Shown: positions 5,887-51,042, numbered from the stretch's first letter. The stretch is DNA of 64,000 bases from Gammaproteobacteria bacterium (GCA_030429735.1 JAUIET010000005.1:13905-77904); one strand, 5' to 3'. Notes: generated by a model not told the origin, from the sequence alone. Program-made: numbers and translations.

Positions 5887-7461
5887 ATGACCGACCACTA
5901 CACAGATCGTCGTACGTTCGCGATAATTTCGCATCCGGACGCCGGTAAAACGACCATCACTGAAAAACTATTGTTGTTCGGCAACGTTATACAGCAAGCC
6001 GGCACGGTCAAAGGGCGCAAATCTGACCGGCACGCCACCTCAGACTGGATGAGCATGGAGCAGGAGCGGGGTATTTCCGTAACTTCGTCTGTGATGCAAT
6101 TTCCGTACAAAGGTCGAACAGTCAACTTGCTGGATACGCCTGGCCACGAAGACTTCTCCGAGGATACCTATCGCACTCTCACGGCCGTGGATTCCGCGCT
6201 AATGGTGGTGGATGGTGCAAAAGGTGTGGAGGCGCGCACCATTAAGTTGATGGAGGTGTGCCGATTGCGCACCACGCCCATACTCAGCTTTGTTAACAAA
6301 ATGGATCGCGATATTCGCGACCCAATTGAATTGTTAGATGAAATTGAAACGATATTGAATATCGCAGCGGCACCCATCAACTGGCCACTGGACATGGGGC
6401 GGCAATTCAAGGGCGTGTATAACCTGTACACCGACACCATTCACGTGTTTCAGCAGGGTCAAGGCAAAACAATCCCTGAGGATGTACAAATACAGGGCCT
6501 GGAAAGCGATGAGGCCAAGGCTCTCCTTGGCAGCATTTATGACGATGTGTTGGGCGAAATAGAGCTGGTACGCGGTGCCAGTCATGAATTTGACCGCGAC
6601 GCCTACCTTGCGGGTGATCTCACACCGGTTTATTTTGGCACGGCTTTGGGCAATTTCGGTGTGCGAGAAATGCTCGACGGTTTTGTTGAATACGCGCCGA
6701 TCCCGCAGCAGCGTAATGCCGGCGACCGCGACGTGCAGCCCGGCGACGATTTCTTTTCGGGCTTCGTTTTCAAAATTCAGGCGAATATGGACCCAAAGCA
6801 TCGCGATCGAATTGCATTCATGCGGCTGGTATCTGGCAGCTATCAGCGCGGCATGAAAATGCGCCATGTTCGCATTGGCAAAGACATACGCATAGCCGAC
6901 GCCGTGACATTCACCGCAGGCGAGCGTTCGCATGTGGAGGAAGCATTGGCGGGCGATATTATTGGCTTGCACAATCACGGTACCATTCAAATTGGGGACA
7001 CGTTCACCAGTGGTGAAGAGCTGCAGTTCACTGGCATTCCACATTTTGCGCCGGAGTTATTTCGCCGAATTCGGATGAAAGATCCCTTGAAAACCAAACA
7101 GCTGCAGAAAGGCCTGCAGCAGTTGTCGGAAGAAGGGTCTACTCAGGTGTTTATGCCCGAACGCAACAATGACCTGATTGTGGGCGCGGTGGGCGTGTTG
7201 CAATTTGAGGTGGTGGCTTACCGCTTGAAAGACGAATACGGCGTGGATTGCTTGTACGAAAACATCAACGTCTACACCGCCCGCTGGATTGAATGTGACG
7301 ACACCAAAATGCTGGATGAATTCAAGCGCAAAAACGCTGACAACATTGCCATAGACGGCGGCGGGCACCTGACCTATCTGGCACCCACCCGGGTAAATCT
7401 GAGCCTTGCCGAGGAACGCTGGCCTGAGGTCACGTTCCGGGCTACCCGGGAGCATCATTAG
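5887..7461 (+). CDS. prfC: Peptide chain release factor 3
   Basis: GTPase motifs [20 protein letters not shown] and NKMD, with full-length RF3-like sequence. ATG 5887 is preferred over the upstream alternative start at 5860. Confidence 0.93.
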
Positions 7462-7556
7462 GCTTGTCGTAGATCACCGAACCCAGACCTTCAGCATTGC
7501 CTGAGACCGCCCTTGCACCTATCATGGTTGCATCTTTGATCACTTGGGGCTGATTC

Positions 7557-8792
7557 ATGTCGCAAAATGTTTACATTCTAGGGGGCGCTCAAACCGATTT
7601 TTCCAGAAACTGGGCCCGCGAAGGTCTGGATTTGTTCGACATGTTCAGCGAGTGTCTGACCGATGCCGTGAGCAGTGCTGGTGTGCAGCCAGAACAGATC
7701 GAGGTAGGCCATGTCGGCACGTTCAATGCGCAGCTGTTCACCGGGCAGGGCATATTGGGTGGCCTGTTTGCCCACGTATTCCCCGAAATGCGAATGATGC
7801 CAAGCTCCTGCCATGAAGCCGCCTGCGCGTCGGGTTCAATGGCCCTGCTGGCCGCCATGCGCGACATACTGTGCGGCCACTATCAGACCTCGGCGGTGAT
7901 CGGTATCGAAATGATGCGGAACACCGACGGCAAAACGGCCGCCGAATACCTGGGCGCGGCCACCTGGAAAGGCATTGAAGCGCAAGACGCTGACTATCCC
8001 TGGCCGCATATGTTCGATTTGATCGTTGATGAGTACGATCGTCGCTACGGTATTAACTGTGACCACCTGAAAACCATTGGCAAAACCAATTTTAATAATG
8101 GCCGCGAAAACCCGAACGCGCAGACGCGCAAATGGGACTTTCCGGAAGGCTGTTTTTCCGACAACGACCAACTCAATCCGGTGATCGAAGGGCGAGTTCG
8201 CAAGCTGGACTGCGGTCAGGTGACGGATGGCGCGGCGGCAGTCGTGCTGGCAAGCGAAGACTTTGCCCGCCAGTACGCGGCAGATAGAGGGCTAACACTG
8301 AGCGATATTCCCAGAATCAAAGGCTGGGGGCATCGGTGCGGACCATTGCTGCTGGACCGAAAGCTGGAACTGAGTAAGGACGAGCCACTGATTTTCCCGC
8401 ACGCAGCATTGTGTGGGCTGGAAGCGGTTCAGCGTGCCGGCTTCGAGAAGGTCAGCGATCTGGACGGCCTGGAAACGCATGATTGTTTCTCAATCACCGA
8501 ATACATGGCCATTGACCATCTGGGCTTAACCGCACCGGGCCAAAGTTGGCAAGCAGTGGAAGAGGGCGTTATACAGAAAGACGGCAGCTTCCCGATCAAC
8601 CCCAGTGGTGGATTGATCGGCCTCGGCCACCCGGTGGGTGCCACCGGCGTGCGCATGCTGCTCGATTGCTACAAGCAATGCACTGGCACCGCCGGCGGGT
8701 ACCAGCTTGAAGACGTACAAAACATGCTGACGTTTAACGTGGGCGGCAGCACAACTACCTGCGCCAGCTTCGTGGTGGGTACTGGTCAATGA
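7557..8792 (+). CDS. Thiolase-like protein (acetyl-CoA acetyltransferase / SCP-x lipid-transfer type)
   Basis: MSQNVYILGGAQTDFSRNW N-terminus, active-site Cys context HEAACASGS, and C-terminal GLGHPVGATG. Confidence 0.75.
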   Translation: MSQNVYILGGAQTDFSRNWAREGLDLFDMFSECLTDAVSSAGVQPEQIEVGHVGTFNAQLFTGQGILGGLFAHVFPEMRMMPSSCHEAACASGSMALLAAMRDILCGHYQTSAVIGIEMMRNTDGKTAAEYLGAATWKGIEAQDADYPWPHMFDLIVDEYDRRYGINCDHLKTIGKTNFNNGRENPNAQTRKWDFPEGCFSDNDQLNPVIEGRVRKLDCGQVTDGAAAVVLASEDFARQYAADRGLTLSDIPRIKGWGHRCGPLLLDRKLELSKDEPLIFPHAALCGLEAVQRAGFEKVSDLDGLETHDCFSITEYMAIDHLGLTAPGQSWQAVEEGVIQKDGSFPINPSGGLIGLGHPVGATGVRMLLDCYKQCTGTAGGYQLEDVQNMLTFNVGGSTTTCASFVVGTGQ

Positions 8793-8808
8793 CGCAAACA
8801 GACACTAG

Positions 8809-9744
8809 ATGAGTGAGCCATTGTTACCCTATAAGCTGGGTTGCCCGATGTGGGGCAATCGGCATTGGGCTGAGCGTTTTTTCGCGCAAGGCGCGAAAGT
8901 GTCTGACTACCTGCTGCAGTACAGTTCTGTGTTCAATACCGTCGAAGGTAACACCACATTTTACGGTTTGCCATCACCCGCAACGGTGGACCGCTGGGCG
9001 CAAGATGCGGATGATCACTTCCGGTTTTGTTTTAAATTTCCACAGCGCATAACGCACGCGCAACGGCTGCAGGGCTCTGAGGAAGAAACCGCCAAGTTTT
9101 TCTCAAGCATGGAGCCGATTGCTGACAAGCTTGGTCCATTCCTGCTCCAGCTGCCGCCCGATTTTTCGCCCGAGTCCCTGCCCGTTCTGAAAGCCTATCT
9201 GCAACAGTTACCGGAACACTATTCGTATGCGGTGGAAGTACGCCACCTTGGCTTTTTTCATGACCATGATGCGGATGATGCGCTCAGCGAGCTGTTACAG
9301 GGTAATGGTATAGACCGGGTAATATTTGATACACGCCCACTGTTTTCTGCGCGCGCTCAAACCGAGGCGGTGCGAGATGCCCAGGGCAAGAAGCCCAAAG
9401 TGCCGGCAAATACCTACGCGTTGGCACAACATCCAAGTCTTCGATTTATTGGGCACCCGGAAATGGAACGCAGCCTGGAGTATTTTCGCCCCTGGTTGCG
9501 AAAGGTGGCAGGCTGGATTGAACAAGGAAAAACACCCTACGTGTTTATCCATACGCCGGATAACGCAGACGCGCCGGAGCTGGCTCGGCTGTTTCATGCG
9601 GGCTTGCAAGAGTTCCTGCCAGCGCTTCCTGCCTTACCCGGTTTTCCCGCGGAGCGTCAGCAGCAAAGTGAGCGTGATTTGCGCAAGCGCAATCGGCAAA
9701 TTATGCGGGCGGATGTTGATGAGCACCAGTACGACCTTTTTTGA
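8809..9744 (+). CDS. yecE: DUF72 family protein (YecE-like)
   Basis: VEGNTTFYGLPSP, DDHFRFCFKFPQRITH, AVEVRH, AVRDAQGKKPKVP and YVFIHTPDNADAPEL are collinear with E. coli YecE as I recall it. Confidence 0.8.
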   Translation: MSEPLLPYKLGCPMWGNRHWAERFFAQGAKVSDYLLQYSSVFNTVEGNTTFYGLPSPATVDRWAQDADDHFRFCFKFPQRITHAQRLQGSEEETAKFFSSMEPIADKLGPFLLQLPPDFSPESLPVLKAYLQQLPEHYSYAVEVRHLGFFHDHDADDALSELLQGNGIDRVIFDTRPLFSARAQTEAVRDAQGKKPKVPANTYALAQHPSLRFIGHPEMERSLEYFRPWLRKVAGWIEQGKTPYVFIHTPDNADAPELARLFHAGLQEFLPALPALPGFPAERQQQSERDLRKRNRQIMRADVDEHQYDLF

Positions 9745-9769
9745 CATTAGCTGCACACCCTGTTGATCG

Positions 9770-10234
9770 ATGGAGAACACCATGAACACCCGTATAGTTA
9801 GAGCAAGTATTGCGCTGATGTCGTTGTTTATTACACCAACGCTGATGGCTGAAGAAGCACCCGCAATCACGCTTGGTAACGGTGAGAAAAACTGGATTAT
9901 TGTTGATGATGTAAAGCGCAATGAGTCTGTGTTGACCTTCTCTGAAGTGCATATCGATGGAAACGGCTGGTTGGTCATACATCCGTTCGAAGATGGTAAA
10001 CCCAACGGTGATAAATACGTGGCATCAAGCTACCTGACAGATGGCAAAAACAGCAATGTTGATATTGAGGTGTACAAAGGCTTGAGCAGTGGCGAAATGT
10101 TTATTGTGATGCTGCACCGCGATGTCAATGAAAACAAGGTACTGGATTTTGTCTTTATTAATGATACCGCGGTGATGGATACGGCTGTGTTTGAAGGCAA
10201 CAAAATGATTGCCCACGCAATTCCTGCGCCCTGA
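9770..10234 (+). CDS. Small secreted protein, possibly DUF7282-like
   Basis: Signal peptide ...ALMSLFITPTLMA. The GWLVIHPFEDGKPNG...MFIVMLHRDVNENKVLDF pattern suggests the family. The second ATG at 9782 has a better GGAGA SD. Confidence 0.5.
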   Translation: MENTMNTRIVRASIALMSLFITPTLMAEEAPAITLGNGEKNWIIVDDVKRNESVLTFSEVHIDGNGWLVIHPFEDGKPNGDKYVASSYLTDGKNSNVDIEVYKGLSSGEMFIVMLHRDVNENKVLDFVFINDTAVMDTAVFEGNKMIAHAIPAP

Positions 10235-10272
10235 CCCCTGGCTGTGCACTGTAGTGCCCCGATTAAGGAATA

Positions 10273-11391
10273 ATGATTATGAGAACAAGAAGAGAAATGT
10301 TAGTTTCGTTGTCGGCTGCGAGCGCGCTGGCCGCTACTGGCTGGTCTGGCTCGCTAGTGGCGATGTCTGGTACACCGGCGACGGTAAACAGGCAGATTGT
10401 ATTGGCGTCTCGGCCAAAGGGTAAACCGACACTGGATAATTTTCGACTTGAAAAAAGCGCGATAAAACCACCTGCCACCGGTGAGCTGTTACTGAAAACG
10501 CGTTACCTGTCACTGGACCCTTACATGCGCGGTCGAATGACCGCCGGCCCAAGCTACGCGCAAAATGTCGCGCTGAACGACGTAATGCTGGGTGGCACAG
10601 TATCTGAAGTACTTGAAAGTAAACACCCTGATTTTGCAGCTGGCGATATTGTGCTTTCCAATTCCGGCTGGCAGGAGTATGAAACCACCAGTGCGCAAGG
10701 CATTCGGAAACTGGATCCGCGAATCAGCCGCCTGTCCTATGGGCTTGGCGTGCTTGGGATGCCCGGCTTGACGGCCTATGTGGGTCTGCTTGATATTGGT
10801 GAACCAAAACCAGGTGAAACCGTCGTACTGGCTGCATCCACGGGTGCGGTAGGCTCGGTGGTTGGCCAAATTGCGAAATTAAAGGGTTGCCGTGTGGTGG
10901 GCATTGCCGGCGCCAAAGAAAAGTGCGAGTACGCCGTGTCGGAGCTGGGCTACGACGCCTGTGTCAGCCATTATGATGACGATATGGCGAGCCAGCTGAA
11001 AGCAGCCTGTCCTGACGGTATTGACGTGTATTTCGAGAACGTTGGCGGCTCGTCCTGGGAGGCGGTTATGCCATTGCTGAATACCCATGCCAGAGTGCCT
11101 GTATGTGGTCTTATCGCTCATTACAACCAGACAGAACTGCCACCCGGACCGGATCGTATGTCGGTACTGCAATCAGTGATTCTGACCAAGCGCATCAAAA
11201 TGCAGGGCTTTATTATTTCCGATCACGCTGATCGAATTCCTGAATTTGTGACTAATGTATCCACCTGGCTGCAGCAGGGGAAAATTAAATACAAAGAAGA
11301 CGTGGTTAACGGCCTGGAAAATGCGCCTGATGCGTTTCTCGGTTTATTCTCAGGTGCAAATTTTGGCAAGCTGGTAGTGAAAGTGAGCTAG
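10273..11391 (+). CDS. MDR-family NADP-dependent oxidoreductase (YncB/CurA / prostaglandin reductase-like) with N-terminal Tat-like signal
   Basis: The core from NRQIVLASRPKGKPTLDNFRLE...YLSLDPYMRGRM...AASTGAVGSVVGQIAK (Rossmann) is typical of the family. A 36-aa extension MRTRREMLVSLSAASALAATGW...LVA precedes it, with an AAGGA SD. Confidence 0.8.
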   Translation: MIMRTRREMLVSLSAASALAATGWSGSLVAMSGTPATVNRQIVLASRPKGKPTLDNFRLEKSAIKPPATGELLLKTRYLSLDPYMRGRMTAGPSYAQNVALNDVMLGGTVSEVLESKHPDFAAGDIVLSNSGWQEYETTSAQGIRKLDPRISRLSYGLGVLGMPGLTAYVGLLDIGEPKPGETVVLAASTGAVGSVVGQIAKLKGCRVVGIAGAKEKCEYAVSELGYDACVSHYDDDMASQLKAACPDGIDVYFENVGGSSWEAVMPLLNTHARVPVCGLIAHYNQTELPPGPDRMSVLQSVILTKRIKMQGFIISDHADRIPEFVTNVSTWLQQGKIKYKEDVVNGLENAPDAFLGLFSGANFGKLVVKVS

Positions 11392-43456: not shown

Positions 43457-44366
43457 TTTTCTTCAGTGCTTCCAGGTCGTGCGACACTATTACCTGCCTA
43501 TTTGGTAACTGATCAATATCTGCCAGCCATTGCCGTAAGCCAGCTAATCTCTTGCGCGATTCAGGTACCATAAAAGTGCTATACCATAGTGCTTTTGGCG
43601 TATTCGTCAGCAGGTCCTGCTTGGTGTTGGTGATGTCGCCGGAAAACAGCCAGGTGTAGTCTTCGACTTTCGCTGCGTATATCGTGCTGCCAGGCGTATG
43701 CCCGCCGGCACTAATCATTAACAAGCCGGGAAAGCCAGGCACATCGTTTACTTCTGGCCCTGGCAGTTTCGTGAAATCAAGACAGCTAGCTTCGTCAAGC
43801 AGCACTCGACCCATATCAGTTACGATATTTCCCCAATCTGCCTGCCACGGAGATTGAAAAACGGCTATTGGTCGCTCGGCTTTGGCGCACAATGCACTGG
43901 CGCCACCTGTGTGATCCTGGTGCAAATGTGTAAACGCAAGGCCGCCAATTGTGGCCGCCACCGTGCCAAGCAGATCAGCCACGGTACCGTGAAATTGAAT
44001 TGGATCTGCTGCAAACGCGGTTTCAGAAATGTTGCCGAACTCGATGGTGCCTCGCTCATCCATGCCAACGTCCAGCAAAAAATGCTGGCCGTCCTTCCAT
44101 TCAAACAAAAAACTGCTGTGAGTCATCGGGCCGCCGTGAGGGCTGGTCTGGCTGGCGTTTAGCAGGTAACGTATCTGAACCGGACCATCTGCCTTGTTGA
44201 GCCTGTAGTCTATTTCCTCAAGAGTGGGCAGTTCAGGATTAACCTGGCGGATATCCCAATGAGCTTTGCCAAGAATAGCTGTCACCGCCAGCACTAAAAC
44301 AAGAACCAGAGCAGCAAAAATCTGAAATATTTTTTTGATCACTACGAATGTCCCGGCTCTTTTCAA
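43437..44366 (-). CDS. Membrane-anchored MBL-fold metallo-hydrolase
   Basis: N-terminal TM (IFAALVLVLVLAVTAIL), FTHLHQDHTGG, and SAGGHTPGS. Confidence 0.8.
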   Translation of the reverse strand: MKRAGTFVVIKKIFQIFAALVLVLVLAVTAILGKAHWDIRQVNPELPTLEEIDYRLNKADGPVQIRYLLNASQTSPHGGPMTHSSFLFEWKDGQHFLLDVGMDERGTIEFGNISETAFAADPIQFHGTVADLLGTVAATIGGLAFTHLHQDHTGGASALCAKAERPIAVFQSPWQADWGNIVTDMGRVLLDEASCLDFTKLPGPEVNDVPGFPGLLMISAGGHTPGSTIYAAKVEDYTWLFSGDITNTKQDLLTNTPKALWYSTFMVPESRKRLAGLRQWLADIDQLPNRQVIVSHDLEALKKSGLVEF

Positions 44367-44420
44367 TCATCTTATCACTTAGCCGATGATCGTTTATAAA
44401 CAATCCGCTACACTGCGGCA

Positions 44421-44617
44421 ATGAATACAATCAGCTCACTTTTAGCCGGGTTCAGTATCGTCAGTGCCATGATGTTGTTCAGGCAAAGCTGCTGCGTCTA
44501 GAAGAGCTGATGAGCAAAGAAAAACACTACCAGGATGAGGCGCTGAATCTGAATGGCCTTGCGGAACTTGTTGAGCTGTCACCGCATCAGTTATTTAACA
44601 CTGCGTTGGTTCGTTAA
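44421..44617 (+). pseudogene. Degenerate remnant of an AraC-family regulator
   Basis: One frame gives a short TM-like start (MNTISSLLAGFSIVSAMMLF..*). A second frame gives VQAKLLRLEELMSKEKHYQDEALNLNGLAELVELSPHQLFN, the typical lead-in and first HTH helix of AraC proteins. It ends where the convergent L,D-transpeptidase gene stops. Confidence 0.4.
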
Positions 44618-46176
44618 TGAGCCTGGGTGGACGCAAGCCAGTGTGACTGTTCTCGCAGAAGATTGTTGGCAATTACACGATCGCGCCCGTAGCGGTCAGG
44701 GGTGAAGTGTAAAAGACCTTTATCGTCAAACCACGTAGTCATATACACCAAATAAACTGGCAGTGGTTGTTCAAGTGAAATCGATTGGCTAGCCACGTTT
44801 CCAGGTCGTGCCAAGTTTTGTAGCAGCGTGACTTTCGCAGGGCTGCGTTCAAGAACGGCCTTGGCAAGCTCAAACGGATTTTCGATCCGCACGCATCCCG
44901 AACTGAAATTCCTGTTGGGTAACTCAAACAGTACCTTGTTGGGCGTATCGTGCAGGAACACGTTGAAATCGTTGGCGAATACAAACTTGATGCGCCCCAT
45001 ACTGTTCTGCTCACCCGGGTCCTGGCGCAGCCGGTACGAAAAATTCTGTGCATTAACCTTTTGCCAGTCAATGCTGCGGCTATCCAACTCAATACTTTTT
45101 CCTTCTTGACGGGTAAACACACGAATATTCTTCTGCGCGAAAAAGTGTTTGTTCTTTTTTTGTAATGGCAGCAAATCGTTGACGGCGATTTTGTGAGGAA
45201 CTCCCCAGGCAGGGTTGACCACCAACTTGTCAATTGATGAAACCAGGCTGGGCGTTGCTCGGTAAGGTCGACCAGCAATTGCGCGAAACCGCAGTTTAAC
45301 CGTGTTGTGCTCTACCAACTGCGCGAAGGCGCCGGCTGTATTTACCCAAAGGCGTCGATCCGCTATAAATCGTGGCATCCAGCGCCAGCGTTCCAGATTC
45401 ACGTGTATTTGCTGCAGGCGCTGGCTGACAGGCACGCGCAGCGCTGTTCTGGTTTGGCGATCCAGAATTCCATCGGCGAGAAGGCCGTGGCGTATTTGAA
45501 ATTGCCGTACGGCTTCCGCCAGTGCTGGACCGAAGAAAAAAGGGTCTGCTTGCATGGCGCCGCTGTAGTCGCCTTCAATCCGCAGTCGATTCCGAAGTGT
45601 TTGAATTTCGCTATGGCGCTCACCAGGCCTTAGAGTCTGATCATTATCTTCCAGCATTGGCCAACCGCCATTGTCTGCGATGGACTGGTACTGCAGCAAA
45701 GCACTGACCAGTTTTGCGTATTCTGCAGCACTCGGCAGTACCCCTCGCAGAACTTGGTCAAGTGGCTGGCCGTCACGAAGCTGTTGGCGAAGTGGCGTCA
45801 GTAGCGCGTCTTCGGTTATTGAGGCGGGGGAAATATGCCAGTCGTTATCAGTCGTTGGCTGCGTGTACCCTTGATGCAAGGCGAACACCAAGGTGCTAAA
45901 AAGCTGCTCAAGTTGGGCATTTCTTAACATCTTTACCGGTAACGCGTTGGCTGAATTTTCTGCAATTACAGGTGCCAAGCCCAACGTAGATGGACTGTTT
46001 AACAGCTGAACTAATTCTTCACCTTGAGCGGTAAGGCCATGTTCAGTTCGCCACAGAGGCTTACCGGCTTGTAAATCCGCTGTTGCCGGTAGGCTAACAA
46101 TTCCTGCTAGCAGAGCTGCGACAAGTCTGCCGGCACGGAGGAAACTAAGGCTGAGTTTCAAGCAGGTGCCCAACAT
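44614..46176 (-). CDS. L,D-transpeptidase, YcbB/LdtD-like (PG-binding plus YkuD domains)
   Basis: PG_binding_1 motif AVRQFQIRHGLLADGILDRQTRTAL. YkuD catalytic region FLHDTPNKVLF...SSGCVRIENP. Signal or anchor at the N-terminus. Confidence 0.85.
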   Translation of the reverse strand: MLGTCLKLSLSFLRAGRLVAALLAGIVSLPATADLQAGKPLWRTEHGLTAQGEELVQLLNSPSTLGLAPVIAENSANALPVKMLRNAQLEQLFSTLVFALHQGYTQPTTDNDWHISPASITEDALLTPLRQQLRDGQPLDQVLRGVLPSAAEYAKLVSALLQYQSIADNGGWPMLEDNDQTLRPGERHSEIQTLRNRLRIEGDYSGAMQADPFFFGPALAEAVRQFQIRHGLLADGILDRQTRTALRVPVSQRLQQIHVNLERWRWMPRFIADRRLWVNTAGAFAQLVEHNTVKLRFRAIAGRPYRATPSLVSSIDKLVVNPAWGVPHKIAVNDLLPLQKKNKHFFAQKNIRVFTRQEGKSIELDSRSIDWQKVNAQNFSYRLRQDPGEQNSMGRIKFVFANDFNVFLHDTPNKVLFELPNRNFSSGCVRIENPFELAKAVLERSPAKVTLLQNLARPGNVASQSISLEQPLPVYLVYMTTWFDDKGLLHFTPDRYGRDRVIANNLLREQSHWLASTQAH

Positions 46177-47509
46177 CTTTTAATATTGTGCCATTCTTCA
46201 GGGCCACGTCGATAGCGTGAATTACGGATTGCGAATGACGCTCGCCCAGCAATATTCCTTGAATTGCGCTGCGACCTGCGTCTACGTTGGCACTGAAGCG
46301 GCCGGCAACTGATACCAGGTTCGCCCCATGAACACTGCCGCCAGCAGAAAACGTGGTAGCCGCAGTCGTGCTTGTCCACTGCCCATTCCAATCGGGTCGA
46401 CTGCCGAAGCTAATGGTGATGTTGGCGGTGGTGGATGTGTTGCGCTGCAGGCTGCCGGCGAAGTGCAAGCTGATTCCCTGACCGCCATTATTGATACCTT
46501 CAGTCGTTAGTTGATCCAGGGTCGCCTGACTGCTGGCAACGCCCCAAACAAAATGCCCACCGTCTGCAGGTCGGTTGGCGTGACTGGCACCGTGTTCAAC
46601 GAACCCAGCGGTGCCGTGCCCCCACAGTCCGCTGGCAACGATCAGTTCGCCAGCATTGTTTGCTGTGAAGTCGCCGGCAACCCCGGATTCAACATCGCCG
46701 TTGCTCGCATGAAACGCGCTTTGCCCCTGGTAGCTGCTGGCAGTCATTCCCGTCAAGGACGCAATTTCATTTTCGCCTCCGCGATCAAACACGAACTGGC
46801 TGCCATCGCTTGCCAGATCGAAGCGGCCTACGGTTTGGTCTTCCGGCACCGAACAAAAGTCTGGATCAAGTACTGCGAAACCACAACTGCCGCCCGCTTC
46901 GCAAAGGCCTAACGGGGGCTCAGGGATCATCGGGTCGATAGGGTTCATTGGGTCTGTTGGATTCATTGGGTCAACTGGTGTCATCGGATCTATTGGTGCG
47001 ATGGGGTCCATGGGATCGACCGGATTCATTGGGTCGACCGGGTTCATTGGGTCAACCGGGTTCATTGGGTCAACCGGGTTCATGGGATCCACGCCATTCG
47101 GCGGACGATTACCCGGCGTAAACGTATCCGCGAACTCCGGGCGAAACTCGTAGTCATCGTGTAAAACAAGCGATTGAGGGGCGTCGGCTTCTGGTCCGGA
47201 TGCAGGGCTGAGCGCTTCCCACGGTCCCCAGCAGCGCACTGAATTGGCAGCGGCTGGATCAGCGCATGGGTCTTCAACCGGTAGCTCTTCAGCCAGACGT
47301 GCAGTATCGGCAGCAAGCAGTTCCCGGCATCCTTCAACCAGGTGAGCGGCTACAGAATCAGGATTTTGTGCCCACTGCTCGAGAATTTCAACGCAGTCGC
47401 GCTTACTGGTGGCAAGACCCGTAGCCACGGCCTGCGCGGCGACAAATAGAAATGACAGGCCAAGCAAGGCGCTAACTACTTTCCTGCCAGGTATATTCAT
47501 GAAAGACAC
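46145..47509 (-). CDS. Secreted repeat protein with TbpB/hemophilin-like C-terminal beta domain (candidate T11SS cargo)
   Basis: SPI-type signal (...FVAAQAVA|TG, no lipobox) and a 4-Cys N-domain, followed by about 10 DPMNPV-like hexapeptide repeats. The Gly/Ser-rich C-terminus (ISLHFAGSL..ANITISFG..FSAGGSVHGANLVSVAGRFSANV..IQGILLGE) shows the alternating pattern of 8-strand handle/barrel domains. Confidence 0.45.
   Translation of the reverse strand: MSFMNIPGRKVVSALLGLSFLFVAAQAVATGLATSKRDCVEILEQWAQNPDSVAAHLVEGCRELLAADTARLAEELPVEDPCADPAAANSVRCWGPWEALSPASGPEADAPQSLVLHDDYEFRPEFADTFTPGNRPPNGVDPMNPVDPMNPVDPMNPVDPMNPVDPMDPIAPIDPMTPVDPMNPTDPMNPIDPMIPEPPLGLCEAGGSCGFAVLDPDFCSVPEDQTVGRFDLASDGSQFVFDRGGENEIASLTGMTASSYQGQSAFHASNGDVESGVAGDFTANNAGELIVASGLWGHGTAGFVEHGASHANRPADGGHFVWGVASSQATLDQLTTEGINNGGQGISLHFAGSLQRNTSTTANITISFGSRPDWNGQWTSTTAATTFSAGGSVHGANLVSVAGRFSANVDAGRSAIQGILLGERHSQSVIHAIDVALKNGTILKDVGHLLETQP
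46926..47095 (-). repeat. 18-bp in-frame tandem repeat (about 10 units) encoding (D-P-M-N-P-V)n
   Basis: Plus-strand units such as gttcattgggtcaaccgg are repeated head to tail. The central units are near-identical and the flanking ones are degenerate. Confidence 0.9.
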
Positions 47510-47580
47510 TCCGAATACAGCGTTTAGACGTTGCAGCCAGTATACGGATGTGAATCAGGCCTTACATTGCAGCTCGTCTT

Positions 47581-48315
47581 TTAACGGCTTACAACGCTAC
47601 CACTTGTCTGCTGCTCACTACCGGTGGTCGAAGCCGCCTGTACAAAACGACGTTCGGCAACTTCAGCGGGCATATGCAGCCACCATTGATGCTTATTGAT
47701 CGAGTACAAAGGCGTGTAGTGGGGGAGCGATTTGTCACTGAGCAGAGAGTTGGTTTTGTTGTCAAGAATAACTGTCTCTTCGCCGCGTGTGACCGCCAAT
47801 ACGGCATGCGCTTGTCCGGCCGCCGTGTCTTGTACCACCACCACGCGCATTGAACGTGATGGAACGCCCAGGTGTTGTAAGGCCAGCATTTTCGCGATCG
47901 CGAAATCTTCGCAATCGCCGCCGTTTTCCATCAGCTCTAACGGTGTTGCCCAATAGTCCTCACGAGCGTAGTTGTGCCTGTCTGCACGGTAGTGAAATTG
48001 GTTGATTGCGGTGTTGAGCCTGGTGAGAAGATCATGCCCGGAATATTCCTGCCATTGCTGTAACATTGAGAACCAGTCGTTTGTTTCACAGCGCGCATCT
48101 TGCTTTATGGCACAACGTTTTAGTTTGTGATGTTCTACCAGGTAGCGGCTTGACACCTCTGTCATTTGCGGAAACGACGCACTGTTTTTGTTAGCTTGCT
48201 GAAAAAAACCGAACAGGCTGCGTTCCATGGGGGAGGCAAGCGCACAACGGCTCGCCACTATTGAGCAAATTATGAGCGCTAGTGCGGGTCTGAACTGTTT
48301 GGTCGTCAGCAACAC
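47581..48315 (-). CDS. Periplasmic transglutaminase-like cysteine protease (BTLCP, LapG/peptidase C93 family)
   Basis: Signal peptide, then the Cys-His-Asp triad contexts NGGDCEDFAIAK, QAHAVLAV and VILDNKT. TTG start. Confidence 0.75.
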   Translation of the reverse strand: MLLTTKQFRPALALIICSIVASRCALASPMERSLFGFFQQANKNSASFPQMTEVSSRYLVEHHKLKRCAIKQDARCETNDWFSMLQQWQEYSGHDLLTRLNTAINQFHYRADRHNYAREDYWATPLELMENGGDCEDFAIAKMLALQHLGVPSRSMRVVVVQDTAAGQAHAVLAVTRGEETVILDNKTNSLLSDKSLPHYTPLYSINKHQWWLHMPAEVAERRFVQAASTTGSEQQTSGSVVSR

Positions 48316-48382
48316 GACTGCAAAGCGACTGCTATAGTCAATAGAGAACTCTTATGCGTATAAACGCGCTCAAGCTATCGTG

Positions 48383-49756
48383 ATGCGTAAACAGCCTCAA
48401 CAGAAAATAACCCAACATCTGCACACTTGCGTGTGTTGGTTGCGTGGAGTGTTTGTTTATTTACTGTTTTTAGCCGGTGCAGTCACCAGCAGTGCGTTTG
48501 CACAAGATTCCGCAGGCGACGAAAACAAAGTGCAGCCGAAAGCAGACCTGCAAAGCATTGATGATGCTGATCAGCTGTTCGCAGAGGCAATGGCGGCCCT
48601 GGAAGGTGATGACTTGCTCACGGCGCGCAATCGATTTGAACGTATTCTGGCCAGCAATCCGGGTCTGCATCGCGCGCGGCTGGAATTGGCCCGGGTGTAC
48701 TACTTGAGTCTTGACTATGAAAAGGCCAGAGAGGAAACCTTGCGAGTGCTTGACGACCCAAACACTCCGCCACAGGTCAGAGTGACACTTCTCGCCTTTC
48801 TTGCTCAAATTGACGCAGACCGCAAAGAGTTAAACAAAGCGCATCGCTGGGCCGGTTCCTTATATCTGGGTTTGAGTTACGACACCAATGTAAATGCGGG
48901 CCCTGACCAGAGCGTGATAGATTTGAATGGCACTCAGTTGTCATTAACAGACGCGTCGCTGGAACGATCAGATGTAGGTGGCGCTGCGATTCTAGGCATA
49001 ACCCACAATTACAGCCCGGGTATAACGTTCGATTTTGCTGAACGCAGCGGTTTTTTCCTGTGGCAATCTCAGGCAAATCTAAACACTCGCCTTTATTTCA
49101 GCGAAGACGATTTCAACCTCGCCGTGCTGACACTCCGAACAGGTCCAGCCTGGATTGTGCCCCGCCATTGGCGTGCAGGCATTGCACTGCAGCTGGACAG
49201 GTTGTGGTTGGGTAATGAGAGTCTGGCGCTGTTCTCGTCGCTAAACCCATATATTGTTTGGCAATGGGCCGACAACTGGGAATTTGGTCTTGATGCGGTC
49301 TACACCGATCGGGACTACGACGATGAATTCAATACACCAAGAAACGGTGATTACCTTGCTGGGTCTGCCACGCTGTCCCGATATTTCTCTGATGCTGACA
49401 TTGGTGTGCAGGCAGGTCTTGGGTTCTCGAACTTTGATGCCGAGGCAGAGCGCTTCAGCCATTCAGGCCCTGATGCCTTCGTATCAGTGAACAAATCGAT
49501 GTGGACTGATGGCTCGGTGTTTGCGCGCTTGAATTGGCGCGCATACGAATACGACGGCGTGGAGCCGGTGTTTAATGTCGCTCGCGACGACACCGAACTT
49601 CGTCTGACCGTTGGCTTTCAGCGGCAGCTTGAATGGTGGCTGCTGGACGGCTGGCAGCTGTTGGCTTCCTGGAGTGTTACTGATAACAGCTCCAATGTCG
49701 AAATATTCGACTACGACCGCCAGCTGATCAACTTAGGCGTCTCTCGCCAGTTTTAA
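48383..49756 (+). CDS. Outer-membrane TPR plus beta-barrel protein with Slam/DUF560 (type XI secretion) architecture
   Basis: Signal peptide (...GAVTSSAFA|QD) and TPR region (AEAMAALEGDDLLTARNRFERILASNPGLHRARLELARVYY...). A beta-rich domain of about 300 aa with alternating hydrophobics follows, ending ...LINLGVSRQF. Confidence 0.5.
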   Translation: MRKQPQQKITQHLHTCVCWLRGVFVYLLFLAGAVTSSAFAQDSAGDENKVQPKADLQSIDDADQLFAEAMAALEGDDLLTARNRFERILASNPGLHRARLELARVYYLSLDYEKAREETLRVLDDPNTPPQVRVTLLAFLAQIDADRKELNKAHRWAGSLYLGLSYDTNVNAGPDQSVIDLNGTQLSLTDASLERSDVGGAAILGITHNYSPGITFDFAERSGFFLWQSQANLNTRLYFSEDDFNLAVLTLRTGPAWIVPRHWRAGIALQLDRLWLGNESLALFSSLNPYIVWQWADNWEFGLDAVYTDRDYDDEFNTPRNGDYLAGSATLSRYFSDADIGVQAGLGFSNFDAEAERFSHSGPDAFVSVNKSMWTDGSVFARLNWRAYEYDGVEPVFNVARDDTELRLTVGFQRQLEWWLLDGWQLLASWSVTDNSSNVEIFDYDRQLINLGVSRQF

Positions 49757-50034
49757 CAGGTGCCTGGCCCGCATTGACCCCACGGCTGCAACCGCCACTA
49801 GCCTTAAAACACAGTGCGTGCTCCCTTCAGGTGCTTGACGGATCGTCAGGTACGCCTGTGCGCCTGTCAGTCCGCGCCACACCGTGTGTTACAGACTTTT
49901 GACGCTTTCGCTTCGCGCGTGCATGAATAATGTGGGCTAGCAGCCCGCATTCCTCTACAATCCTGTGCATCAACAAACATCCACGCCCGAATCGAAGCGT
50001 GGCTGCAATGTAAGCAATTTCCAGGAAAACAAGT

Positions 50035-51042
50035 ATGACCTCTAATTCTGTGCCGCTGGGCTTAAACCTTGGTATTTGGGACCGAATGAGCAATTGGCAA
50101 GACACTGTCGAGATTGCTCGGCTAGCCGATGAGCTTGGTTACAGCACCTTGTCATTGCCCGAGTCATTTGGGCGTGATGGCGTTACATTGTGCGATCGAT
50201 TACTTGCGGCCACAGAAAATATTAATGTCTGCTTAGGTATAGCGAATGTGTTTTCGCGCTCACCGGCGGTGCTTGCATCGACCGCAGCGACACTCGATGA
50301 ATTGTCTGGCGGACGCTTTATTCTCGGCTTGGGCGGCAGCACGCCAAACCTGATTGAGGGCTGGCATGGCTTGGAATTCAGTGCGCCGCTGCAGCGCACG
50401 CGTGAAACAATCGATATCTGCCATAAAATTTGGGCACGAGACAAGTCACCTTATGAAGGCGAAATATTTAAAACGGGCGGTGTAAAGTTAACCTTCACTC
50501 CATTGCGCGAATCAATTCCAATTTGGCAGGGTGCAGTATTGGATAAAGGTATTGCAACCTGTGCGGATAAGGCAGACGGTTGGATACCATCCAGTTTGCC
50601 TAGAGAGAGCATTGAACATGGCTTGGGCATAATTAATGAAACATGTTCGGCCAATGGTCGCAATGCAAGTGAAATCAGTGTCGCGCCAACATTTCAGTTA
50701 GCCGCACACGACGATGCTGATCAATTACTACCGCTGGTGAAATTCGGAATCGCGATGTATTACGGTGCTGCCAACAGTCCTTATGCCAAGGCAGCCATCG
50801 GTCTGGGTTATGGTGACGAAGTGCAAGAACTGCAGGCAGCCTACGTCAACGGTGGCGCACCGGCAGCTGCCGAAGTGTGCTCGGAGCAGCTGGCCAGAAG
50901 TGTAGCCCTGGTAGGGTCTGTTGCTGAGTGCCAACAACAGATTCGAGACATATTGGCCGCAGGCGCAAGCCAGGTTATGGTCACACTACCAGCTGGAACT
51001 CGCGCTGAATGCGAGCCAATCCTCGCGGGTATTCGCCCTTAA
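50035..51042 (+). CDS. LLM-class (luciferase-like) flavin/F420-dependent oxidoreductase
   Basis: LGYSTLSLPESFGRDG, SGGRFILGLGGS and EGWHG pattern. Confidence 0.75.
   Translation: MTSNSVPLGLNLGIWDRMSNWQDTVEIARLADELGYSTLSLPESFGRDGVTLCDRLLAATENINVCLGIANVFSRSPAVLASTAATLDELSGGRFILGLGGSTPNLIEGWHGLEFSAPLQRTRETIDICHKIWARDKSPYEGEIFKTGGVKLTFTPLRESIPIWQGAVLDKGIATCADKADGWIPSSLPRESIEHGLGIINETCSANGRNASEISVAPTFQLAAHDDADQLLPLVKFGIAMYYGAANSPYAKAAIGLGYGDEVQELQAAYVNGGAPAAAEVCSEQLARSVALVGSVAECQQQIRDILAAGASQVMVTLPAGTRAECEPILAGIRP

Follow-up and report, generated by a model that had tools for sequence, protein, structure and literature searches.

A conserved gene module that may link a type XI secretion cargo to release by a LapG-like protease in environmental Gammaproteobacteria

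Why should a Slam/DUF560-type outer-membrane protein (OMP), a cysteine protease of the BTLCP family, a secreted protein and an L,D-transpeptidase (Ldt) be encoded side by side? This question is raised by a stretch of 64,000 nucleotides from a Gammaproteobacteria bacterium (GCA_030429735.1 JAUIET010000005.1:13905-77904), which we call the window. The original prediction was that the four genes form a protease-gated type XI secretion system (T11SS) module, in which a cargo is tethered and then released by proteolysis. Our sequence comparisons and structural models support a T11SS pair of OMP and cargo, with the N-terminus of the cargo as the predicted substrate of the adjacent BTLCP. On balance we lean, without great firmness, toward the view that a conserved envelope module with a protease-released T11SS cargo is present here in a reduced form of four genes. 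The window locus is reduced in that it has no receptor gene and no gene for a VPLPA-CTERM protein; in its cargo the Pro-rich stalk is long, and the site, PASG, is degenerate. All four open reading frames (ORFs) occupy the positions first assigned to them:

48380/48383..49756, plus strand: OMP gene, 458 aa, ATG at 48383, C-terminal end ...VSRQF
48316..48379, no strand: divergent intergenic region of 64-67 nt between the OMP gene and the BTLCP operon
47581..48315, minus strand: BTLCP protease gene, 244 aa, divergent from the OMP gene and 67 nt from its ATG
46145..47509, minus strand: cargo gene (secreted protein), 454 aa, after a 71-nt gap behind the BTLCP gene
44614..46176, minus strand: Ldt gene, 520 aa, overlapping the cargo gene by 32 nt

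A scan with an alignment of the OMP against one genome per GTDB species yielded 80 loci, whose neighbouring genes were identified by tblastn and ORF clustering. The BTLCP gene adjoins the OMP gene in 77 of the 80, and a cargo homolog lies beside the OMP gene in 77 as well. The Ldt gene was found in 63/80, contig ends explaining most of the missing ones. In the clade of the window, the OMP gene diverges from a BTLCP-cargo-Ldt series; in the majority order, the BTLCP gene diverges from an OMP-cargo-X-Ldt series, where X is a further gene described below. On three long contigs with cargo homologs, each homolog stood within the same four-gene set, and the flanks were unrelated on two. Because two gene orders occur and the flanks differ, we regard the genes as a real functional module. 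The original prediction had proposed co-occurrence in other genomes as a check, and indeed the neighbouring genes are kept together in about 80 genomes despite the altered gene order. The hosts are uncultured environmental Gammaproteobacteria; an identical (100%) OMP and loci at 82% identity come from metagenome-assembled genomes (MAGs) of uncultured marine Pseudomonadales/Pseudomonadota.

The OMP-cargo pair is also kept where the BTLCP and Ldt genes are absent. In loci L089 (4168-8287) and L091 (1215-5334), an OMP gene at 36% identity is followed by two tandem cargo paralogs bearing PAAG, with no BTLCP gene within 7 kb; in L089-L091 the cargo genes are followed, 2 kb further downstream, by one for a 1203-aa RTX (HemolysinCabind) protein. 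No type I secretion system (T1SS) or RTX family recurred across the 80 neighbourhoods. Two complete MAG chromosomes, OZ244928 and OZ244979 (loci L040 and L041, at about 7200-10750), carry genes for the receptor introduced below, BTLCP, OMP and Ldt and no cargo gene between those for OMP and Ldt; their cargo may be encoded elsewhere or lost.

The OMP matched the Pfam model SlipAM (DUF560, PF04575) over its full length (1-288 of 288), with a marginal score of 24.0 bits against the cutoff of 22. It also matched DUF2860 over its C-terminal half (40.9 bits), and its match to TPR_Slam (23 bits) fell just below the cutoff. Among 36 members of the OMP family, SlipAM was recognised in 23 (E <= 1e-3), DUF2860 in 25 and TPR_Slam in 18. 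The AlphaFold2 (AF2) model of the OMP, with a predicted local distance difference test score (pLDDT) of 88.2, places tetratricopeptide repeat (TPR) helices ahead of 14 long strands, the number that had been expected:

48380-48502, plus strand: signal peptide, aa 1-41 (approximately)
48557-48835, plus strand: periplasmic TPR helices, aa 60-152 (AF2 model)
48842-49753, plus strand: 14-strand beta-barrel, aa 155-458 (AF2 model)

The best Foldseek geometry and TM-scores were obtained with the 14-strand barrels OmpG, CymA and FadL, within a set of PDB entries that included no Slam structure; Foldseek was for that reason set aside as proof of Slam identity. From the PF04575 match and the predicted architecture, the OMP appears to be a divergent member of the DUF560/Slam family, with TPR repeats and a predicted barrel of 14 strands, as first proposed.

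For the secreted protein, the AF2 model (built from a 28-sequence alignment) reached a mean pLDDT of 78.6, with residues 200-454 above 90. Its N-domain is modelled with helices at 36-48 and 55-72. The layout bears out each part of the earlier description, namely a signal peptidase I signal without a lipobox, a 4-Cys N-domain, the DPAAAN motif and a Pro-rich (DPMNPV)n spacer:

aa 1-29, minus strand: Sec signal peptide without a lipobox; non-lipoprotein
aa 30-106 = 47192..47422, minus strand: N-domain, a helical hairpin and a Cys3-Cys4 loop, with conserved C39, C61, C82 and C93
aa 84-89 = 47243-47260, minus strand: DPAAAN in the N-domain
aa 107-199 = 46913..47191, minus strand: disordered spacer including the Pro-rich (DPMNPV)n, pLDDT < 60
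aa 200-345 = 46475..46912, minus strand: handle beta-sheet domain including the conserved CxxGxxCGF and helix 328-340, pLDDT > 90
aa 346-454 = 46148..46474, minus strand: C-terminal TbpB_B_D-type barrel of eight strands (346-452), presumed T11SS targeting domain

Does the C-terminal half of this protein carry the barrel expected of a T11SS cargo? A profile search with the full cargo against PDB sequences returned just Pro-rich low-complexity matches, so that comparison of folds and of profiles was needed. Foldseek against the PDB placed TbpB entries 3HOL, 3PQS, 4O3Y and 9CMG_B on top (probability 1.0) and also retrieved fHbp. An exhaustive profile search with the C-terminal half against 1.8 billion proteins revealed a family that is small and closed, with 66 clusters at 50% identity; its weakest members are positive for Pfam PF01298 (TbpB_B_D) over exactly the aligned stretch. 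Aligned with hhalign, the cargo alignment (A2) and the alignment of PF01298-positive members (A5) matched at 99.5% probability (E = 2e-22), and the cargo of locus L088 is recognised by Pfam as TbpB_B_D. Because the tail members are PF01298-positive over the same stretch and hhalign joins the two alignments, we assign the modelled cargo barrel as a divergent TbpB_B_D domain, the recognised T11SS cargo domain (PMC12282271, PMC8406197). The proposed likeness to the eight-strand TbpB/fHbp barrel thus held in both model and comparison; of the PF01298 assignment, the profile-profile link to positive relatives stood and a direct match of the window cargo did not.

A word-indexed search had undercounted the relatives of the cargo, at six; with tblastn on the OMP-anchored loci and with the profile search, the number rose to about 70 orthologs. 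Between the PAAG element described below and the handle, their spacer is hypervariable: a DPMNPV repeat in the window (47004-47089), runs of about 30 consecutive Pro residues in L069 (9074-10069), another variable region in L074 (9469-10785), and almost nothing in P0005 and P0006. The DNA beneath the window spacer repeats with an 18-nt period (4.4 copies, 90% identity, 47004-47083; Tandem Repeats Finder). Such variability fits a length-tunable stalk. In the close relative L002/L008 (GCA_964352475.1, CAYGSL010000022.1; cargo region L002 5290-6789), the cargo is annotated at only 261 aa; there is no full-length cargo ORF, and matches to the N- and C-domains are split around the Pro-rich repeat. 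The split is likely a frameshift or an assembly collapse within the repeat.

If the adjacent protease acts on this cargo, where would it cut? LapG-family proteases recognise a targeting helix (Helix1), DPxxxLxx, and TAAG or [T/A/P]AA[G/V], in which the Ala-Ala bond is scissile (bioRxiv 10.1101/198937; PMC13090378). A comparable element ends the N-domain of the cargo:

aa 93-105 = 47195..47233, minus strand: candidate BTLCP recognition/cleavage element CWGPWEALSPASG, consensus CWGPWxxLAPAA(G/A)

Across 67 non-redundant orthologs this element is fixed in position and starts at Cys4. Its Pro, Ala and Ala stand at fixed positions in 64, 64 and 63 of the 67, respectively, and [TAP]AA is found at the fixed position in 61/67, against a background of 0.0014 per residue for the canonical motif. 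The spacing from Pro to Leu equals that in the LapG pattern, whereas PAAG comes one residue earlier. Divergent cargos without the 4-Cys domain include Desulfobacterota variants and Pfam TbpB_B_D-positive relatives; in these cargos with a short N-terminus (short-N cargos), DSVxxWG(R/P)WxVxxPAAG follows straight after the signal peptide, and PAAG is invariant. CWGPWxxLAPAA(G/A) is likely to be the cleavage site of the BTLCP, a putative assignment made on sequence grounds.

The DPAAAN motif, to which attention had first been drawn, was rejected as the cleavage site because of its place in the loop from Cys3 to Cys4 and because its Ala-Ala is kept in only 46/67 orthologs. A second motif, P(A/G/S)AG, occurs between Cys2 and Cys3 in 31/67 4-Cys cargos (for example in L017, L024, L029 and L033), and the Cys3-Cys4 knot is therefore flanked by two candidate sites.

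The protease itself was recognised by Pfam as BTLCP (PF06035, 65.5 bits; family Peptidase_C93) and aligned with LapG of Legionella pneumophila (4FGO, E = 8e-23), with its GGDCED, His170 and Asp185 in register:

within 47581..48315, minus strand: signal peptide ending in ...CALA, followed by SP
47905-47922, minus strand: GGDCED (Cys135 and flanking Ca2+ ligands)
47806-47808, minus strand: His170
47761-47763, minus strand: Asp185

The predicted Cys-His-Asp (C-H-D) triad is thus present, and the triad and Ca2+ site (GGDCED, His at +35, ILDN) are intact in 79/79 BTLCP orthologs. The designation LapG-type holds at the level of the BTLCP family and fails at that of the equivalog: the protein scored 89.5 bits against NCBIfam NF045674, where the LapG cutoff is 320. 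By sequence, then, the window protease is a BTLCP protein and not a LapG ortholog or equivalog.

What might control such a protease? In about 69 of the 80 loci, a gene of about 690 aa lies directly downstream of the BTLCP gene and encodes a receptor with a transmembrane segment, a periplasmic domain (about 310 aa), a second transmembrane segment, a PAS domain (PAS_4) and a degenerate HD-GYP domain:

L024 5086-7206, minus strand: example receptor gene, with homologous positions in L012-L085

The best PDB matches of the receptor are DvhD 9RC0 and 9RBZ (E = 3e-34). It lacks the canonical HD and HHE, reading AN and KQE where the aligned DvhD has SQ and MNE, and keeps GYP. DvhD is the cyclic diguanylate (c-di-GMP) receptor that controls the BTLCP protease DvhG in Desulfovibrio (PMC13090378). 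Because a gene for a DvhD-like c-di-GMP receptor follows the BTLCP gene in most relatives, the idea of protease gating gains independent support. Given this partner and the motif in the cargo, an HvyA-like (capsule-control) role for the BTLCP was set aside. The census of neighbouring genes also yielded two recurrent 'gene families' that were rejected as antisense shadow ORFs of the receptor gene.

Gene X lies between the cargo and Ldt genes in 51 loci. Its product is secreted, about 200 aa long, and carries a VPLPA-CTERM (PEP-CTERM-type) tail that TIGR03370 recognises above its cutoff. The tail implies a link to exosortase-type sorting. Like the receptor gene, gene X is absent from the window and six clade loci. 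Examples are:

L012 10676-11290
L016 10654-11250
L024 10611-11201
L005 1701-2306

The last gene of the window operon encodes, as first suggested, a YcbB-type Ldt. Its product has a signal peptide and the Pfam domains YkuD, PG_binding_1 and Scaffold, and matches the solved YcbB structure 7AJ9 at E = 2e-57. Its score against NF007891 (221 bits, below the cutoff of 425) makes it a member of the YcbB/LdtD family and not an equivalog.

44887-44904, minus strand: Ldt catalytic SSGCVR (Cys428)

The catalytic motif is intact in 60/63 orthologs, and in L001, L003, L076 and L078 the gap between the Ldt and cargo genes is 1-21 nt. In a count limited to loci that extend 2.6 kb or more beyond the end of the cargo gene, the Ldt gene was present in 52/53 with a 4-Cys cargo versus 0/6 with a short-N cargo, which suggests from sequence data that the Ldt and the 4-Cys domain are functionally tied. 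The six short-N loci may be just two or three lineages, and shared ancestry could explain the pattern. The gene after the cargo in short-N loci is often leuA. In L074 (10867-13727) and L069 (3647-6534), tandem genes of about 470 aa follow the short-N cargo in the place of the Ldt gene; by eye, they look like adenylate-forming (phenylacetate-CoA-ligase/F390-synthetase-like) enzymes. Ldts attach Lpp and beta-barrel OMPs to peptidoglycan, and YcbB-type enzymes are best known for 3-3 cross-links.

At the level of DNA, a consensus promoter scan of 48316..48379 gave nothing above the shuffled background, and promoter and terminator scans over 44300-50100 gave no more matches than shuffled sequence did. 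Base composition over the module region is unremarkable.

Gene identities, predicted folds, co-occurrence and the conserved motif are computed results; from them we infer how the module might work. The Slam-type OMP would serve as the type XI translocon for the adjacent Sec-exported cargo, recognising it through the C-terminal TbpB-type barrel and placing the handle and barrel on or beyond the cell surface. The N-terminal element of the cargo would stay accessible from the periplasm; in the clade of the window, this element is a presumably disulfide-bonded 4-Cys domain followed by WGPWxxLxPAAG. The Ca2+-dependent BTLCP would cut the Ala-Ala of the element and thereby turn a cell-associated cargo into a released one, in the manner of LapG on LapA and DvhG on DvhA. 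In most relatives, the DvhD-like degenerate HD-GYP receptor would couple the cut to c-di-GMP. Because the clade of the window has no receptor and no VPLPA-CTERM gene, and because the window site is PASG, the cut there may be weakened, may be constitutive, or may answer to regulation encoded elsewhere in the genome. The co-transcribed YcbB-type Ldt would act on peptidoglycan and support the form with a 4-Cys domain.

Several observations weigh against this proposal. The strict motif [TAP]AA[GV] occurs in just 26/67 orthologs, and many others read PAAA; the window site is PASG and that of its closest relative PAEG, neither of them a canonical Ala-Ala (other members of the clade read PAAG). Short-N variants have only about 25 residues ahead of PAAG, and therefore a bulky periplasmic 'plug' is not a universal means of retention; that the polypeptide stays threaded through the Slam barrel is an assumption of the model. 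The OMP barely exceeds the DUF560 cutoff and scores higher on DUF2860, and the window cargo gave no TbpB_B_D/PF01298 match at E <= 1 and no Pfam match at all. Finally, a receptor gene was found neither anywhere in the window (64 kb) nor at a distance of up to 8 kb from the OMP gene in the six clade loci. Since the clade of the window lacks the receptor, c-di-GMP gating is predicted for the relatives that have one rather than for the window locus. On the other hand, none of the findings that the original prediction had named as fatal to it was made, whether a missing DUF560 match, an OMP barrel of other than 14 strands, a cargo C-terminus without an eight-strand barrel, or a lack of conservation among the neighbours.

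The same data can be read in other ways. The BTLCP might remove the N-terminal element before or during export, and so license secretion or activate the cargo. The 25 or so residues ahead of the invariant PAAG in short-N variants, too small for a plug, would agree with such propeptide gating, as would the soluble T11SS cargos hemophilin and HrpC, which are fully secreted (PMC8406197). We nevertheless think it unlikely, though well worth keeping in mind, since every BTLCP/LapG/DvhG system characterised so far uses cleavage to free a surface protein that had been retained, and the four conserved Cys residues suggest a folded periplasmic domain in most orthologs. The Ldt points to another use of that domain: it might link the cargo to meso-diaminopimelate, either through the 4-Cys N-domain or through the N-terminus made by the BTLCP, and thereby tether it to the sacculus until or after proteolysis. 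The place of the Ldt gene in the operon (the 32-nt overlap in the window and the gaps of 1-21 nt in L001, L003, L076 and L078), its association with 4-Cys cargos (52/53 versus 0/6) and the known attachment of Lpp and beta-barrel OMPs by Ldts all speak for it. Yet the cargo alignments contain no conserved Lys or N-terminal Ala-Asp acceptor motif, YcbB types are known mainly for making 3-3 cross-links, and the correlation could reflect the shared ancestry of two or three short-N lineages; anchoring of this kind seems to us quite improbable. A bolder version of it, to which we give slight credence, would make the module a Gram-negative counterpart of sortase-anchored surface proteins, with the 4-Cys domain fixed by the Ldt, the Pro-rich stalk passing through the Slam barrel, the TbpB fold outside, and a c-di-GMP-controlled BTLCP severing the protein at PAAG. 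If that were true, the cargo would bridge sacculus, outer membrane and surface until cleavage.

Shared location need not mean a shared substrate. The BTLCP, with its receptor where there is one, could act on a protein encoded elsewhere, such as a T1SS-exported RTX adhesin, leaving the OMP-cargo pair and the Ldt as independent neighbours. The canonical substrates of LapG and DvhG are indeed large RTX adhesins, L089-L091 have a gene for an RTX protein 2 kb away from those for the cargo, and L040 and L041 have BTLCP, OMP and Ldt with no cargo gene between them. Such independence is very unlikely in our judgement: among the 80 neighbourhoods there is no recurrent T1SS or RTX family, every cargo variant carries the LapG-like motif at its fixed position, and the gene set persists through rearrangement of its order. 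Least of all do we expect the OMP to be no translocon but a porin of the DUF2860 type, or some other barrel, with a 'cargo' that stays in the periplasm. The bit scores (40.9 for DUF2860 against 24 for SlipAM) lean that way, and the PDB set compared included no Slam structure; but the SlipAM match spans the whole model, TPR_Slam is recognised in 18/36 members, and the combination of TPRs and 14 strands comes with a TbpB-fold protein that is always adjacent.

How does the preferred reading, a T11SS cargo released by the BTLCP, compare with systems already described? The module combines two known kinds. With T11SS pairs (Slam1/2-TbpB/fHbp, HrpB-HrpC and the hemophilin-type HphA/Hsf pairs) it shares a DUF560 OMP with N-terminal TPRs and a predicted 14-strand barrel, encoded beside a Sec-exported cargo that ends in a TbpB_B_D-type handle and eight-strand barrel; the window cargo is non-lipidated, as are hemophilin and HrpC. 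Unlike those pairs, the OMP here belongs to a distant branch on the border of DUF560 and DUF2860, the N-terminus of the cargo has a new element, WGxWxxLxPAAG, which may or may not be accompanied by a 4-Cys domain, the locus includes BTLCP and Ldt genes to which relatives add a c-di-GMP receptor and a VPLPA-CTERM protein, and neither TonB nor iron uptake is linked to the module. With the Lap system (LapD-LapG-LapA/LapE of Pseudomonas fluorescens and relatives; LapG-CdrA/CdrB) the module shares a periplasmic Ca2+-dependent BTLCP with a C-H-D triad, and across the family the presumed substrate has a comparable N-terminal, presumably periplasmic element followed by P-x-x-x-L-x-(x)-[TAP]AAG, the window copy reading PASG. 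That substrate, however, has a mass of about 45 kDa, a TbpB fold and a T11SS route, and is not a giant RTX adhesin held in a TolC-like pore or TpsB; the protease lies well below the NCBIfam LapG cutoff; and there is no LapD (GGDEF-EAL), the window having no receptor of any kind.

A third comparison is with the Dvh system of Desulfovibrio vulgaris (DvhD-DvhG-DvhA; PMC13090378), which shares the BTLCP and, in about 69 related loci, a DvhD-homologous receptor. It differs in that the receptor is absent from the clade of the window, in its substrate, in its T1SS in place of the T11SS route, and in the membrane-associated N-terminus of DvhG, where the BTLCP here has a cleavable signal peptide. The Ldt shares Scaffold, PG_binding_1, YkuD and the catalytic SxGC(I/V)R with YcbB/LdtD of E. 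coli, but is operon-coupled to a secretion/protease module, is restricted to loci with a 4-Cys cargo and falls below the equivalog cutoff. Known LapG-type substrates are exported by T1SS or type Vb secretion systems, and our full-text literature searches found no paper pairing BTLCP/LapG with DUF560, Slam or T11SS. The papers on T11SS neighbourhoods do not list PF06035 and report YkuD at noise level only; none of BTLCP, Ldt, c-di-GMP receptor or VPLPA-CTERM is among the neighbours that they list (PMC12282271, PMC8406197). T11SS have been verified by experiment only in cluster 1, which is animal-associated; the nine other clusters have no characterised member (PMC8406197, PMC12282271).

The module thus represents an environmental branch of T11SS with a predicted cargo class, a signature of WGxWxxLxPAAG, a dedicated protease and, mostly, a c-di-GMP receptor. 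It looks like a biofilm-adhesin release switch joined to a different secretion system. The association of the Ldt with the 4-Cys domain offers a testable connection between a secretion system and peptidoglycan, and with four to six genes, reconstitution in E. coli or P. fluorescens should be feasible, as the precedent of Dvh indicates. If the proposed mechanism is true, post-translational regulation of T11SS output would be possible, and the 'inside-out' control of surface proteins known from LapG and DvhG would extend to a third route beyond type I and type Vb.

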